This document shows, in pieces, positions 35,813 through 41,428 of a DNA stretch of 64,000 nt. Each line of letters opens with the position of its first letter. Position 1 is the first letter of the stretch. The stretch is from the NCBI RefSeq assembly GCF_050920415.1, contig NZ_CP169309.1; one strand, 5' to 3'. Both the position numbers and the translations under genes were made by a program. The notes below the pieces were generated by a model that was not told the origin of the DNA, ran no database searches, and was given only the letters and a program-made list of their open reading frames with translations. The DNA is from Escherichia coli (GTDB taxonomy: Bacteria; Pseudomonadota; Gammaproteobacteria; Enterobacterales; Enterobacteriaceae).

Positions 35813-36571
35813 ATGCATTACCAGCCAAAACAAGATTTACTCAATGATCGCATTATCCTGGTGACGGGAGCCAGCAATGGTATTGGTCGTGAAGCCGCGA
35901 TGACGTATGCACGCTATGGTGCGACAGTGATTCTGTTGGGCCGTAATGAAGAAAAATTACGTCAGGTAGCCAGCCACATAAACGAAGAAACTGGGCGTCA
36001 GCCACAGTGGTTTATTCTCGATTTGCTGACCTGCACGTCCGAAGATTGCCAACAACTGGCACAGCGCATTGCCGTTAATTATCCGCGTCTGGATGGTGTT
36101 TTGCATAATGCCGGATTGCTCGGCGATGTTTGCCCAATGAGCGAGCAAAACCCGCAGGTCTGGCAGGACGTCATGCAGGTCAACGTTAATGCCACCTTTA
36201 TGCTCACCCAGGCACTGCTTCCTTTATTACTCAAATCGGACGCCGGTTCACTGGTCTTTACTTCATCAAGCGTTGGACGTCAGGGGCGTGCAAACTGGGG
36301 CGCTTATGCAGCGTCGAAATTTGCCACCGAAGGGATGATGCAGGTACTGGCCGATGAATATCAGCAGCGCCTGCGCGTCAACTGCATTAACCCAGGTGGT
36401 ACGCGCACCGCAATGCGCGCAAGCGCCTTCCCGACCGAAGATCCACAGAAACTTAAAACACCCGCTGATATCATGCCGCTCTACCTCTGGCTGATGGGCG
36501 ATGACAGCCGCCGTAAAACCGGCATGACCTTTGACGCCCAACCGGGCCGTAAACCAGGAATATCCCAATGA
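35813..36571 (+). CDS. yciK: short-chain dehydrogenase/reductase
   Basis: 252 aa; TGASNGIGRE Rossmann motif. Confidence 0.9.
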   Translation: MHYQPKQDLLNDRIILVTGASNGIGREAAMTYARYGATVILLGRNEEKLRQVASHINEETGRQPQWFILDLLTCTSEDCQQLAQRIAVNYPRLDGVLHNAGLLGDVCPMSEQNPQVWQDVMQVNVNATFMLTQALLPLLLKSDAGSLVFTSSSVGRQGRANWGAYAASKFATEGMMQVLADEYQQRLRVNCINPGGTRTAMRASAFPTEDPQKLKTPADIMPLYLWLMGDDSRRKTGMTFDAQPGRKPGISQ

Positions 36572-37158
36572 GTGATGAACGCTACCAACAGCGTCAGCAG
36601 CGTGTAAAAGATAAAGTGGATGCCCGTGTGGCCCAGGCCCAGGATGAACGCGGTATTATCATCGTCTTTACCGGCAATGGAAAAGGCAAAACCACCGCGG
36701 CATTTGGTACAGCAGCTCGCGCAGTTGGTCACGGAAAAAAAGTGGGCGTCGTGCAGTTTATTAAAGGCACCTGGCCTAATGGCGAACGAAAACTGCTGGA
36801 GCCACACGGCGTTGAGTTTCAAGTGATGGCAACGGGCTTTACCTGGGATACGCAAAACCGCGAATCTGATACCGCAGCCTGCCGTGAAGTCTGGCAACAT
36901 GCCAAACGAATGCTGGCAGATGCTTCACTGGATATGGTTTTGCTCGATGAGCTGACGTATATGGTGGCGTATGACTATTTACCACTGGATGAAGTGGTGC
37001 AGGCGTTAAATGAACGTCCACATCAACAGACGGTGATTATCACGGGTCGTGGTTGTCATCGGGATATTCTTGAACTGGCGGATACGGTAAGTGAATTACG
37101 CCCTGTCAAACATGCGTTTGATGCCGGTGTTAAGGCGCAAATCGGGATTGATTATTAA
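36568..37158 (+). CDS. btuR: cob(I)yrinic acid a,c-diamide / corrinoid adenosyltransferase
   Basis: 196 aa; P-loop GNGKGKTTAAFG; start overlaps the yciK stop by 4 nt. Confidence 0.93.
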   Translation: MSDERYQQRQQRVKDKVDARVAQAQDERGIIIVFTGNGKGKTTAAFGTAARAVGHGKKVGVVQFIKGTWPNGERKLLEPHGVEFQVMATGFTWDTQNRESDTAACREVWQHAKRMLADASLDMVLLDELTYMVAYDYLPLDEVVQALNERPHQQTVIITGRGCHRDILELADTVSELRPVKHAFDAGVKAQIGIDY

Positions 37159-37163
37159 GGGAA

Positions 37164-37197
37164 AGCACCTCAAAAGATCGCCTCTTGAGGTGCTTTA
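37164..37197. terminator. hairpin downstream of btuR (also downstream of the 102-aa minus-strand ORF)
   Basis: agcacctcaa...ttgaggtgct inverted repeat followed by tttaat. Confidence 0.55.
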
Positions 37198-37210
37198 ATC
37201 ATAATTATAT

Positions 37211-37519
37211 TCAAGCGGCAATAGCAAAACTCAGAATCCGTTTAATCTCATTCAAATGTCCCGGATATGCTTCATGATTCTCAGCGTCAACATCTTCAAT
37301 AAATAATATCAGTTCAGTAATTAACGCATTGGCATCTTCATAACTGATTCCGCTTAACTCTGGCGAAGTTTCAGTACCGTAGTTAATCGTCAGATTGTTC
37401 ATCACCGTGAGGATAAGGATAAAATATTTATGACAAACCTTGCAAGTGGTTTTGTTGCCCAGAGTATTATACAGCATATCAAGTAATGCCAGTATTCTAC
37501 GGTTTTGTACATCGTTCAT
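37211..37519 (-). CDS. hypothetical 102-aa protein, second gene of an AT-rich two-gene module; function unknown
   Basis: Uninterrupted ORF in ~35% GC DNA; strong SD (taGGAGGggc) 7 nt upstream of ATG; starts 12 nt after the upstream lipoprotein stop; single CxxC (CKVCH), acidic C-terminal half. Confidence 0.6.
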   Translation of the reverse strand: MNDVQNRRILALLDMLYNTLGNKTTCKVCHKYFILILTVMNNLTINYGTETSPELSGISYEDANALITELILFIEDVDAENHEAYPGHLNEIKRILSFAIAA

Positions 37520-37531
37520 AAAAAGCCCCTC

Positions 37532-38533
37532 CTATAACATTATTCCGCTGGCAATAAGTAATTTCGCCAGCCCCTCAGACGCCTTTAACCCACTAATGAC
37601 CTGTGCGCGTAATATTTCATTTAATCTGTTTTGTTCAGCTGCCGTGCGTGTTTTATTAGTGTATAAACCTTTTAGATAATCACCCTTATCTATAAAGGCA
37701 TTTAAAGCTTCAATCGCGGGCATTGCAGCAGCCGATGCCTGTAGTCTGGTTTCATTCACATTGATTACTGAACTTAGAAACTCCTTCCTGTTTTTCAGAG
37801 TGTTAAACTCTGTATTCTTAGAGTTTTTAGATACCGCATTATAATAAAGCATATTATTATGTACATTCGCAAAGGTATAATTTTCAATCTTATCGCCTTT
37901 TGTATAAATATCATTACGCAAAACAGTCATGTTTTTTATAAGTCTTACCCAATTTTTATCCGCCGTTTTACCTATTTTCCCAGCATTGACCTTTATTATA
38001 TATAACTCGTTGAAATAACTTACTAAATCTTTAACTGCCGCTGCCGATTCAGCTAAATCTTTGCTATGTGAAACATCAAGTAGTGTTTGCGCGTTGTTTG
38101 CGTGATCCAGAGCCTGTTTAAGTAATGTCACTTGCTGACTTTCTGTAGTTTTTATGTCTTCAGTCAAGAGCTCTACATAAGCACTCATGCTATTAATGAC
38201 TTCCATTGAAGCCAGTAGTTTCTCTTTTTCGAATGGGACTAATTGTACTTTATCTGTTTTTTCTTCAGGGGGCCTGCATAATTTTCCACCCTGACCATCG
38301 TTCGCAACATCAATGGTATAATCAGGTCGCAATGCACAATCCGGATTAGTCGCATAAAAATTAACAAGGAAGTTTTCACGAGAAGCATAGTATTGTTTAA
38401 AGAAACTTGCATTCGCCGCAACCGCCTTGTTACCCGCAGTAATAACAGTTTCAGCTTGCTCATTTTTCAATGCTTCAGTTGCACAACCTGAAAGCATTAA
38501 CAGCGATAGAAATAATCCACTATATCTAATCAT
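37532..38533 (-). CDS. hypothetical 333-aa lipoprotein (predicted outer-membrane-targeted), first gene of the AT-rich module
   Basis: N-terminus MIRYSGLFLSLLMLSGC-ATEA (signal peptide plus lipobox LSGC, Ala at +2); SD agaGGTGG upstream; 1 kb ORF in AT-rich DNA where stop codons are frequent. Confidence 0.7.
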   Translation of the reverse strand: MIRYSGLFLSLLMLSGCATEALKNEQAETVITAGNKAVAANASFFKQYYASRENFLVNFYATNPDCALRPDYTIDVANDGQGGKLCRPPEEKTDKVQLVPFEKEKLLASMEVINSMSAYVELLTEDIKTTESQQVTLLKQALDHANNAQTLLDVSHSKDLAESAAAVKDLVSYFNELYIIKVNAGKIGKTADKNWVRLIKNMTVLRNDIYTKGDKIENYTFANVHNNMLYYNAVSKNSKNTEFNTLKNRKEFLSSVINVNETRLQASAAAMPAIEALNAFIDKGDYLKGLYTNKTRTAAEQNRLNEILRAQVISGLKASEGLAKLLIASGIML

Positions 38534-38654
38534 AACCCACCTCTTGACGTTGAGTTTATCTCAGATAATTAAATAGTAATGTGGCTATTCCCTGGCATTA
38601 TTCATAAGCAAGTATGAAATTAAATTAAAATACTGCGACTATTTATCATGCTTC

Positions 38655-38690
38655 AAATGAAGAAAAGGCCCCGCAGGGCCTTTATTTAAT
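38655..38690 (-). terminator. rho-independent terminator of rluB
   Basis: aaaggccc-cgca-gggccttt hairpin 20 nt after the rluB stop, followed on the minus strand by ttttcttcattt. Confidence 0.7.
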
Positions 38691-38702
38691 ACTTAACTTA
38701 AA

Positions 38703-39578
38703 TTAACCGTTATTATTACGTCCACCAGAACGACGACCGCCGCTGACCTGGCTGTGACGTTTCACCGCACGACGAATTTGATTCGCCTTCATACGACGAC
38801 GGTCTTTTTCTACAGCAACTTTAGAGCTGGTTTCTGGCGGTAGTTCCACCAGCTCACGCAGATAGTTAGTCTGGGCAAGATCCAGCTCAGTCCAGCCACC
38901 GCGTGGCAGACCTTTCGGCAGTGGGATATCACCGTAACGCACGCGGATCAGACGGCTCACCTGCACACCAACAGCTTCCCAAAGACGACGAACTTCACGG
39001 TTACGGCCTTCGGTCAGAGTAACATTGTACCACTGGTTGATCCCTTCGCCGCCGCTGAACTTAATGGTTTTAAAGGCTGCCGGACCATCTTCCAGCTGCA
39101 CGCCACGACTCAAATCACGCAGTTTCGCGTCGTCAACCTGACCAAATACACGCACGGCATATTCACGTTCAACTTCACGGCTTGGATGCATTAGACGGTT
39201 TGCCAGTTCACCGTCGGTGGTAAACAGCAGGAGACCGCAGGTGTTAACGTCCAGACGACCTACGGCAATCCAGCGTGCACCGCGCAGTTTTGGCAGACGG
39301 TCAAATACCGTTGGACGCCCTTCCGGATCGTTACGGGTACACAACTCACCTTCCGGTTTGTAATAGGCCAGAACGCGACAAATTTGTTCAGCGGACTCAC
39401 GTACCGAAATCAGGTGACCATCGATACGGATTTTCAATCCAGGGGTAATTTCAACACGATCGCCGAGTTTAGCAATTTTGCCATCAACACTCACACGACC
39501 GGCTTCAATAATAGATTCGATTTCACGGCGAGAACCGTGGCCGGCACGCGCCAGCACTTTCTGTAGCTTTTCGCTCAT
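38703..39578 (-). CDS. rluB: 23S rRNA pseudouridine(2605) synthase
   Basis: 291 aa; S4 domain at the N-terminus, pseudouridine synthase core, basic RG-rich tail. Confidence 0.93.
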
Positions 39579-39678
39579 AGAGCTTCCTTTTGGTGTCGCC
39601 TTCCCAGGCGTCGAACAGGAGAATCAATGGCGCAGTAGAGCGCCATTTTAAGGCCGCGTAGTATACAGAGTTAATCAC

Positions 39679-40299
39679 TTATAAAAAAGGCTTCACATCA
39701 CCTACACCTTCACGCAATACGACTGGCGTATCATCGGTGAGATCAATAACCGTTGTCGGTTTCTGCCCGAGATAGCCGCCGTGAATAATCAAATCCACCT
39801 GTTTTTCCAGACGGTCTTTAATTTCTTCCGGGTCAGACTCGGTAAATTCGCTGCCAGGTAGCATCAGTGATGTGGAAAGCATCGGTTCGCCCAATGCTTC
39901 AAGCAACGCCTGCGCAATCGGGTTAGAAGGCACACGCATACCGATGGTTTTGCGTTTTTCCTGCAACAGACGGCGTGGCACTTCCTTCGTCCCCTTCAGG
40001 ATGAAAGTGTAGTTACCCGGCGTATTGTTTTTCATCAAACGAAACGCAACGTTATCGACAAATGAATAGGTCGAGAGTTCAGAAAGATCGCGACACATCA
40101 GGGTAAAGTTGTGACCGTCCGGCAGCTGGCGAATACGACAAATACGCTCCATGGCGTTTTTATCTTCAATTTTACAGCCGAGCGCATAGCCGGAATCAGT
40201 TGGATAAACAATCACCCCGCCTTTACGCACGATCTCCACCGCCTGGTTGATCAGACGTTGCTGCGGGTTATCAGGATGAATATAAAAAAACTGGCTCAT
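39679..40299 (-). CDS. yciO: YrdC/Sua5-family dsRNA-binding protein
   Basis: ORF trimmed to MSQFFYIHPDNPQQRLINQAVEIVRKGGVIVYPTDSGYALGC..., 206 aa. Confidence 0.88.
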   Translation of the reverse strand: MSQFFYIHPDNPQQRLINQAVEIVRKGGVIVYPTDSGYALGCKIEDKNAMERICRIRQLPDGHNFTLMCRDLSELSTYSFVDNVAFRLMKNNTPGNYTFILKGTKEVPRRLLQEKRKTIGMRVPSNPIAQALLEALGEPMLSTSLMLPGSEFTESDPEEIKDRLEKQVDLIIHGGYLGQKPTTVIDLTDDTPVVLREGVGDVKPFL

Positions 40300-41177
40300 A
40301 ATTCCCTCTCTGTGGTGTTCTGCGGCTGTTCCCATAGCTGCCAGACGCCTTCAACGCCTGCGGGCAGCCAGAGTTTACGACCCAGTTCGATCCACGGGCA
40401 TGGCTGATGAAAATCAGATCCTTGTGATGCCCATAAATGGTGCTGGCGGGCAAGCGTCGCCAGTTGGGTGCGTTCATTGGGCGATTGCTGGCACTGCGCG
40501 ACTTCCATCGCGTCGCCGTGGTGTTCGGCAAAATGCGCAACCAATCTTTTCAGCCATTTAGCACTAAGATTGTACCGCCCAGGATGAGCAAGCACTGCCT
40601 TACCGCCAGAATGATGAATGACATCAATAGCTTGTTCTATTGTACACCACTGTGGCGGAACGTATCCGGTTTTCCCGCGTGCCAGATATTTTTTAAAGAC
40701 ATCCGCTATTGAACTGGCTTTGCCACATTCAACCAAGAAACGCGCAAAATGACCGCGCGTCACCGCACCGCCCTGCGCCAGTCGTTGCGCGCCTTCCAGC
40801 GCCCCAGGTATTTGCGCTTTTTCAAGTCTTTCGGCAATTAACTTCGCCCGCTGATTGCGCCGTTCTGTCTGCTGCGCGAGGAACTCACTCATTGCCGAAT
40901 GTGCAATATCAATATTCAGCCCGACAATATGAATTTCATGATTTTCCCAGACGGTGGATATTTCCACGCCAGGAATAAGATTCAGTGCCAGTCCTGAACG
41001 TGAAATTTCTTCTCTTGCTGGCGCGATTGCCGCTGTGGTGTCATGGTCGGTGATCGCCAGGGTGCCGACGCGCATCTCGACTGCACGGTGCACCAATGCT
41101 TCTGGCGTCAGGCAGCCATCGGAAGCTGTGGTATGGCTGTGCAGGTCATAAATCACTGCGTAATTCGTGTCGCTCAA
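40296..41177 (-). CDS. trpH: PHP-domain 5'-3' exoribonuclease / phosphoesterase (TrpH / YciV / RNase AM)
   Basis: PHP motif HSHTTASDG; proposed TTG start (plus-strand caa at 41175-41177) gives 293 aa; an alternative ATG lies upstream. Confidence 0.85.
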   Translation of the reverse strand: MSDTNYAVIYDLHSHTTASDGCLTPEALVHRAVEMRVGTLAITDHDTTAAIAPAREEISRSGLALNLIPGVEISTVWENHEIHIVGLNIDIAHSAMSEFLAQQTERRNQRAKLIAERLEKAQIPGALEGAQRLAQGGAVTRGHFARFLVECGKASSIADVFKKYLARGKTGYVPPQWCTIEQAIDVIHHSGGKAVLAHPGRYNLSAKWLKRLVAHFAEHHGDAMEVAQCQQSPNERTQLATLARQHHLWASQGSDFHQPCPWIELGRKLWLPAGVEGVWQLWEQPQNTTEREL

Positions 41178-41251
41178 GGCGCACTCCCGTTTTGGATAAT
41201 GTTTTTGCGCCGACATCATAACGGTTCTGGCAAATATTCTGAAATGAGCTG

Positions 41252-41290
41252 TTGACAATTAATCACCGGACTAGTTAACTAGTACGCAAG
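41252..41290 (+). promoter_or_regulatory. trp promoter (-35 TTGACA 41252-41257, -10 TTAACT 41275-41280) with overlapping TrpR operator
   Basis: Direct reading: ttgaca-17 bp-ttaact; palindromic actagttaactagt operator core. Confidence 0.85.
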
Positions 41291-41313
41291 TTCACGTAAA
41301 AAGGGTATCGACA

Positions 41314-41358
41314 ATGAAAGCGATTTTCGTACTGAAAGGTTGGTGGCGCACTTCCTGA
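41314..41358 (+). CDS. trpL: trp operon leader peptide
   Basis: [14 protein letters not shown] with tandem Trp codons. Confidence 0.9.
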
Positions 41359-41400
41359 AACGGGCAGTGTATTCACCATGCGTAAAGCAATCAGATACCC

Positions 41401-41428
41401 AGCCCGCCTAATGAGCGGGCTTTTTTTT
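41401..41428 (+). terminator. trp attenuator (3:4 terminator hairpin)
   Basis: agcccgcctaatgagcgggc followed by tttttttt, 22 nt before the trpE ATG. Confidence 0.9.

Follow-up and report, generated by a model that had tools for sequence, protein, structure and literature searches.

K-12 carries yciQ between yciO and rluB, and the 64,000-nucleotide stretch of Escherichia coli DNA analyzed here (the window) has only a short spacer at that place. The original prediction, made from the sequence and the gene order of K-12, was that this genome lacks yciQ and that the neighborhood of rluB is a variable hotspot. The locus raises the question of whether the short spacer is what remained after a deletion or an allele in its own right, and of how it came to stand close to a second variable segment, an AT-rich module located on the other side of rluB.

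Anatomy of the yciO-rluB interval and comparison with K-12

Positions 37000-41300 of the window are 100% identical to the chromosome of E. coli strain MFDS1022581 (NZ_CP169399.1), in which the RefSeq annotation gives the order cobO, two hypothetical proteins, rluB, yciO, rnm, and trpL-trpE. The features of the region are the following.

36568..37158, plus strand: btuR/cobO, left border of the variable neighborhood (RefSeq annotation of the identical record; tblastn, 97% to K-12 BtuR)
37159..38702, minus strand: AT-rich module in the btuR-rluB interval, GC content 0.37 (composition), annotated as two hypothetical proteins
37211-37519, minus strand: ORF102, 102 amino acids, inside the AT-rich module
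37532-38533, minus strand: ORF333, 333 amino acids, predicted lipoprotein with the N-terminal lipobox LSGC, inside the AT-rich module
38703..39578, minus strand: rluB, 23S rRNA pseudouridine(2605) synthase, 291 amino acids (ORF; RefSeq annotation of the identical record)
39579..39678, minus strand: short yciQ-free yciO-rluB spacer, 100 bp (read directly)
39679..40299, minus strand: yciO, Sua5/YciO/YrdC family, 206 amino acids (annotation)
40296..41177, minus strand: rnm (yciV/trpH), PHP-domain RNase (annotation of the identical record; tblastn, 98% to K-12 Rnm)
41335-41428: tryptophan operon leader (Rfam RF00513, 93 bits), in its expected place ahead of trpE

The two genes that flank the spacer were identified by their domains as well as by annotation. 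RluB matched NCBIfam NF007976 at 630 bits and the Pfam families S4 and PseudoU_synth_2, and YciO matched TIGR00057 at 266 bits and Pfam PF01300. The rluB start codon occupies positions 39576-39578 (CAT on the plus strand) and the yciO stop codon positions 39679-39681 (TTA on the plus strand). The sequence between them, 39579-39678, is exactly 100 bp long and free of genes, in agreement with the predicted gap of about 100 bp. No credible ORF was present in the spacer according to the six-frame ORF list. The sole ORF touching it, a 51-amino acid frame with a GTG start (39523-39678), was rejected as unsupported, as it overlaps rluB out of frame.

The gene order given for K-12 turned out to be right. 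The MG1655 annotation lists rnm (b1266), yciO (b1267), yciQ (b1268), rluB (b1269), and btuR (b1270); yciQ, which encodes a DUF2207 membrane protein, is 1896 bp long and located at 1324746-1326641, yciO ends at 1324718, and rluB starts at 1326852. The K-12 gap is thus 2133 bp long, and K-12 does not have the spacing of about 100 bp that would have contradicted the absence of a gene from the window. The flanking genes, their order, and their strands are identical in both genomes, with nucleotide identities of 96.3% for yciO and 95.8% for rluB and no difference in the 34 bp that precede the rluB ATG. An alignment of the window with K-12, which had been proposed as a check, showed homology up to the final base of the yciO stop codon (39679), a break there, and renewed homology from 39612, 34 bp before the rluB ATG. 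Between these two points the window has 66 bp (39613-39678), while K-12, as well as E. coli SMS-3-5, has 2099 bp, which in K-12 comprise yciQ and a long rluB leader. Since 66 bp stand against 2099 bp, the difference is a replacement and not a clean deletion. K-12 also differs from the window in being devoid of the AT-rich module between btuR and rluB.

The possibility that yciQ was located elsewhere was addressed in two ways. A tblastn search with YciQ found no homologue in the window (best E = 1.0). A chimeric query, in which the AT-rich module and rluB of the window were joined to K-12 yciQ in inverted orientation, matched one place in the source chromosome and in each of six sister genomes, and two places in yciQ-positive controls that carry the AT-rich module. 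At megablast sensitivity, there is then no yciQ elsewhere on chromosome NZ_CP169399.1. The statement that the genome lacks yciQ holds for the window by tblastn and for the chromosome by the chimeric query.

Conserved elements of the short spacer and their counterparts in other genera

Inspection, folding, and alignment of the 100-bp spacer distinguished the elements listed below.

39579..39612, minus strand: part common to both alleles, GACGCCTGGGAAGGCGACACC followed by the Shine-Dalgarno sequence AAGGAAG and the ATG; K-12 homology resumes here
39592-39615, minus strand: invariant block TTCGACGCCTG(T/G)GAAGGCGACAC, directly ahead of the Shine-Dalgarno sequence of rluB and conserved in taxa ranging from Escherichia to Serratia and Yersinia
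39613..39678, minus strand: allele-specific segment of 66 bp; the 2099-bp K-12 counterpart consists of a 27-bp spacer, yciQ, and 176 bp
39626..39647, minus strand: terminator-like hairpin AAUGGCGC-ucuacu-GCGCCAUU, 8 bp (folding)
39652..39667, minus strand: promoter-like motif TGTATACT-ACGCGGCC, an extended -10-like hexamer plus a GC block (conserved alignment columns)

A scan for RluB with one genome per species produced at least 80 loci; Salmonella, Shigella, E. fergusonii, Klebsiella, and the cryptic Escherichia clades are absent from the 80 loci listed, none of which encodes a YciQ homologue. The yciO-rluB spacer is about 90-110 bp long in E. albertii, Enterobacter, Lelliottia, Kosakonia, Phytobacter, and Buttiauxella, and at eight Citrobacter-type loci, seven of them labelled Citrobacter and one a MAG labelled Raoultella. 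These short spacers align with the 100 bp of the window, the 66 allele-specific bases included, and they have three conserved elements, namely TATACT-ACGCGGCC, a hairpin whose position is fixed, and the invariant leader block, which is recognized by TTCGACGCCTGTGAAGGCGACAC. The spacers from E. albertii to Buttiauxella differ from that of the window by species-level divergence, by the sequence of the hairpin, where the changes are compensated, and by the loop base of the invariant block, which is T and not G. E. albertii resembles the window further in that homologues of the AT-rich module, with 61-73% amino acid identity, occupy the same btuR-rluB site. Judged by these alignments, the spacers of the window, E. 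albertii, Citrobacter, and Enterobacter are orthologs, and the window allele is typical of the closest relatives of E. coli.

The part of the spacer shared by both alleles has a core that is invariant from Escherichia to Yersinia and holds a 5-bp stem-loop (stem CGCCU/AGGCG). The block, also given as GACGCCTGKGAAGGCGAC, was invariant in 19 to 29 taxa in the alignments, with the core GACGCCTG(T/G)GAAGGCGACA, and it is more conserved than the adjacent coding DNA. The spacer had no match in Rfam, where only the trp leader was detected nearby. The invariant block may be an rluB leader or regulatory element.

The conserved promoter-like motif is likely the rluB promoter. A homologous motif is present in taxa with long leaders and in yciQ-carrying alleles, and its diverged copy upstream of rluB in K-12 is GTGTAGTATGTTGCGCC. 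The notion that yciQ-carrying alleles lack any counterpart of the 66 bp was abandoned: BLAST found none, but alignment with the long leaders revealed that the diverged promoter-like motif is shared. A consensus promoter scan chose another, overlapping pair, TTAACT/TAAAAT, and the consensus promoter and terminator scans performed at background level (2 found vs 0.9 expected).

Folding of the hairpin in a context of 121 nt gave an MFE of -33.2 and z = -2.0. The hairpin is retained at a fixed position in other genera, where the sequence differs and the pairing is kept, as judged by folding the sequence of each species separately; in the RNAalifold consensus, length variation misaligns the stem. 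It is likely a yciO terminator or a leader element. The hairpin of Enterobacter and Lelliottia has a U5 tail and the look of a classical intrinsic terminator, yet it is located downstream of the promoter-like motif. If both elements are functional, transcription of rluB in these two genera must read through a terminator.

Allele frequencies and origin of the window haplotype

The distribution of both alleles was determined in 5426 complete E. coli genomes. A 401-bp probe that crosses the empty junction was contiguous in 1441 of them (~27%) and K-12 yciQ was found in 3977 (73%), and these two classes together cover nearly all the genomes. The yciQ-free strains 08-00022, G3/10, and 1919D62 have the same 100-bp spacer type and the same junctions as the window. 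Compared with the window, the common yciQ-free version has 5 differences in the 66 allele-specific bases, and the flanks differ as well (94.5% identity over the 401 bp); these common yciQ-free genomes, unlike the window, are without the AT-rich module.

The AT-rich module had also been pointed out, and it is indeed present beyond rluB as two genes that are missing from K-12. It was detectable in 1234 of the 5426 genomes (23%), with very divergent alleles. All four combinations of yciQ and the module exist: yciQ alone in K-12, both in SMS-3-5, neither in 08-00022, and the module alone in the window. The proposal that the window carries the module instead of yciQ is right in that one is absent and the other present; it fails in that these are two separate intergenic polymorphisms and there was no exchange of one for the other. 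The two are nevertheless strongly associated in the population. A probe requiring both features found the yciQ-free, module-positive combination in 9 of the 5426 genomes, compared with about 328 expected under independence, a deficit that does not amount to a formal test because the genomes are phylogenetically structured and not independent samples. The negative association of the module with the empty allele could be due to population structure (phylogroups) alone. The window haplotype is rare in E. coli, and the nine complete genomes share the whole of it at 98.6-100% identity.

The reading that we favor, to which we assign a probability of roughly 85%, is that the window carries an old, short, yciQ-free allele, orthologous to the spacer of the outgroups and exchanged by recombination, rather than a deletion derivative of the K-12 allele. 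The short allele would be old, and it segregates in E. coli beside the yciQ-carrying one, the empty state presumably being ancestral in Escherichia. In the short allele, the rluB promoter-like motif starts 11 nt after the yciO stop, followed by a short hairpin and the invariant leader block; in the K-12-type allele, yciQ is placed between yciO and the diverged promoter motif, and a longer leader follows. Homologous recombination appears to move both alleles from one lineage to another, the conserved flanks being yciO and, on the opposite side, the invariant leader with rluB. The AT-rich module is otherwise almost always linked to yciQ, and its presence beside the short allele thus points to a haplotype that is most likely recombinant.

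The flanks of the spacer have the mosaic appearance that such exchanges produce. The identity along rnm-yciO and rluB is mosaic when followed in 100-bp blocks, and the empty alleles of six E. coli strains show differing combinations of flank variants: the loop base of the invariant block may be G or T, and the rluB 5′-end and the yciO 3′-end each come in two types. The window rluB is 97.4% identical to that of SMS-3-5, which carries both yciQ and the module. About 400 bp at the 3′-end of the window yciO (39679-40080) form a divergent patch, with 91-95% identity to K-12, SMS-3-5, and 08-00022, and are followed by 300 bp at 99-100%. This patch looks like a recombination tract.

A narrower version of the favored reading, opposed to vertical retention of an empty allele, is that a lineage carrying both yciQ and the module, like SMS-3-5, imported the short allele together with the ~400-bp yciO 3′-end from another E. 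coli lineage. The mosaic pattern of the flanks makes such an allelic replacement the likeliest origin of the combination of an empty allele with the module, and we consider the odds about even. In its favor, only 9 of the 1234 module-carrying genomes are yciQ-free, the divergent yciO patch is followed by nearly identical sequence, and the YciO protein of the window (WP_001353240.1) also occurs in strain GF4-3, which is without the module. The window also shows in the leader a variant typical of yciQ-carrying alleles (G in GCCTGGGAAGG) and a K-12-type rluB 5′-end. However, the empty alleles of 1919D62 and HH97 have this G variant and the K-12-type 5′-end too, so that these markers are not diagnostic, and the G/T position was dropped as a marker tying the window flank to yciQ-carrying alleles when four more empty alleles were seen to show both bases. 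Furthermore, the AT-rich module in this lineage has ~92% identity to the next alleles, a divergence that would fit an old separate lineage equally well.

A recent and simple deletion of yciQ from a K-12-like allele, for instance by illegitimate recombination or replication slippage, is very improbable. Such an event would be compatible with the similarity of rluB to that of SMS-3-5, and a yciQ-positive ancestor of the window lineage is plausible given that module haplotypes almost always carry yciQ. A deletion would nonetheless be expected to join sequences of the longer allele, and the 66 bp are not contiguous in the K-12 or SMS-3-5 allele; they cannot be aligned with it as a block, only the diverged promoter motif being shared, and they match the spacers of E. 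albertii and Citrobacter position by position. The same junction is found in 1441 genomes, and the K-12 cassette has no flanking direct repeats to mediate its loss. An assembly or annotation artefact, with yciQ present and collapsed or moved elsewhere, is a general possibility only and deserves next to no credence, since nine independent complete genomes share the haplotype, 1441 share the junction, and neither another yciQ place on the chromosome nor a YciQ-like sequence in the window was found.

The yciQ cassette and the yciO-rluB site as a hotspot

If the short allele is old, the history of the other allele must be considered too. YciQ proteins with at least 94% identity were found in a protein search only in E. 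coli. The next matches, at 50-56%, include those of Klebsiella sp. RHBSTW-00484 and K. huaxiensis, and they are followed by one at 38% in Serratia fonticola. The homologues of two Klebsiella genomes (K. oxytoca group) are located at the same site, in the order rnm-yciO-DUF2207-rluB, and two contigs have homologues there as well, one of them Klebsiella-like and metagenomic, the other Leclercia-like, with flanks nearest to Leclercia and Lelliottia. These homologues have 52-57% amino acid identity; the Serratia homologue lies elsewhere in its genome. The same-site homologues share the K-12 junction motifs, which are TTCCAYGGAWGGAA preceding the start codon and, at the right-hand border, TAYCA|GACGCC. 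Pairs of YciQ proteins are 95% identical when both come from E. coli, 84-87% when both belong to the Klebsiella group, and 52-60% when the genera differ; among the flanks, YciO and RluB range over 93-100% and Rnm over 76-99% in the same comparisons. As the divergence of YciQ scales with that of the flanks, the cassette seems to be old and fast evolving and not a recent transfer; a recent passage between Klebsiella and E. coli found no support on the same grounds, the identity being only 52-57%. Since the cassette has diverged together with its hosts, both alleles look old.

A third type of spacer helps to place the insertion. Long empty spacers of 160-400 bp exist in Serratia, Yersinia, Pseudocitrobacter, Pluralibacter, Mangrovibacter, and Enterobacter sp. 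BIGb0383, with the same motif (TGTAnnAT followed by GCGGCC), the same invariant block, and a longer leader between them. The yciQ-rluB spacer of K-12 aligns over its full length with these long empty yciO-rluB spacers. This orthology with the whole of the long spacer indicates that yciQ was inserted on the upstream side of the rluB promoter motif. The alignments accordingly give the site three states: short and empty, as in the window; long and empty; and long with cargo between yciO and the putative rluB promoter. The distance from the motif to the invariant block, that is, the alternative rluB leader, is 42 nt in the short allele vs about 120 nt in the long one. Both alleles were seen within a single species, E. 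coli, yciQ in some Klebsiella and Leclercia-like genomes, and empty sites in related genera. It is tempting, and in our estimate doubtful, to regard yciO-rluB as an ancient two-allele locus whose two forms would have persisted, or would have been re-exchanged repeatedly, across genera of the Enterobacteriaceae, namely Escherichia, Klebsiella, and a Leclercia-like lineage, purely by recombination in the ultra-conserved flanks, with leaders that would regulate rluB differently.

What YciQ does was approached through its domains and the literature. DUF2207 is its only Pfam domain; YciQ and the proteins of the AT-rich module had no PADLOC or NCBIfam match, and ORF102 and ORF333 none in Pfam. The sole functional study of DUF2207 found in the literature concerns a mutant of Streptococcus mutans. 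In metabolic engineering papers yciQ serves as a neutral integration site, and one pan-genome study counts it among 'extended-core' candidate loci (PMC12595684); no literature specific to a yciQ polymorphism was found. In E. coli O157:H7 NZ_CP038316.1 the gene is broken by an IS1203 element of the IS3 family, and in O157:H7 NZ_CP038321.1 the match is in two pieces with only 83% covered. The broken gene in these two strains fits a dispensable function. In addition, a Logan assembly contains a 399-amino acid protein that matches a quarter of YciQ with 100% identity and has SohB peptidase S49 domains in the remainder. This implies that in one sample or another, perhaps of an engineered strain, a deletion or a misassembly joined yciQ to sohB, with rluB, btuR, and yciK gone.

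Chromosomal integration hotspots between conserved core genes are a general concept of pan-genome analysis. The yciO-rluB site resembles them in that a single core pair brackets unrelated cargo in different Enterobacterales. Gap sizes range from 90 to 4800 bp among the 80 loci listed, and the cargo belongs to at least 8 different Pfam families among the loci examined. Examples from other genera are T6SS Hcp, a Rap1a immunity protein, alpha/beta hydrolases, MlrA-like and LysR regulators, a GT1 glycosyltransferase, and a trypsin-like lipoprotein. The gaps of Leclercia adecarboxylata and Serratia contain an orphan T6SS Hcp (PF05638, E = 1e-33) and a Rap1a T6SS immunity protein (PF18602, E = 5e-21), cargo that indicates that the hotspot at times houses genes for interbacterial competition. 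Within E. coli the site is polymorphic (27% empty vs 73% with yciQ, and the AT-rich module in 23% next door). The idea of a variable hotspot around rluB was borne out both within the species, through the four combinations, and across Enterobacterales, through the unrelated cargo. The yciQ cassette differs from such hotspots in lacking an integrase, a tRNA, an IS element, and flanking direct repeats, and its exchange appears to depend on homology in the flanks alone. No mobile-element genes were present at the K-12, SMS-3-5, or Klebsiella loci, and direct repeats were limited to short ones at chance level, with none at the borders of the K-12 cassette. Insertion or excision mediated by a mobile element was rejected, there being no integrase, transposase, tRNA, or att-like repeats at the borders.

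The polymorphism is that of an ordinary accessory gene and is already visible, annotated versions of the two alleles being present in thousands of public genomes. The fidelity of the cassette position across genera and the existence of alternative rluB leaders are mildly novel. The absence of yciQ is the short, outgroup-like state and has little significance for biology at large. The K-12 gene order is not the norm of the species at this place, and 'missing relative to K-12' should not be taken to mean a deletion. Lineage and recombination can be followed with the yciO-rluB and btuR-rluB spacers as markers, the double haplotype marking nine complete genomes, and a 23-nt block upstream of rluB that is invariant across families, together with two alternative leaders, may be of use for studies of rluB expression.
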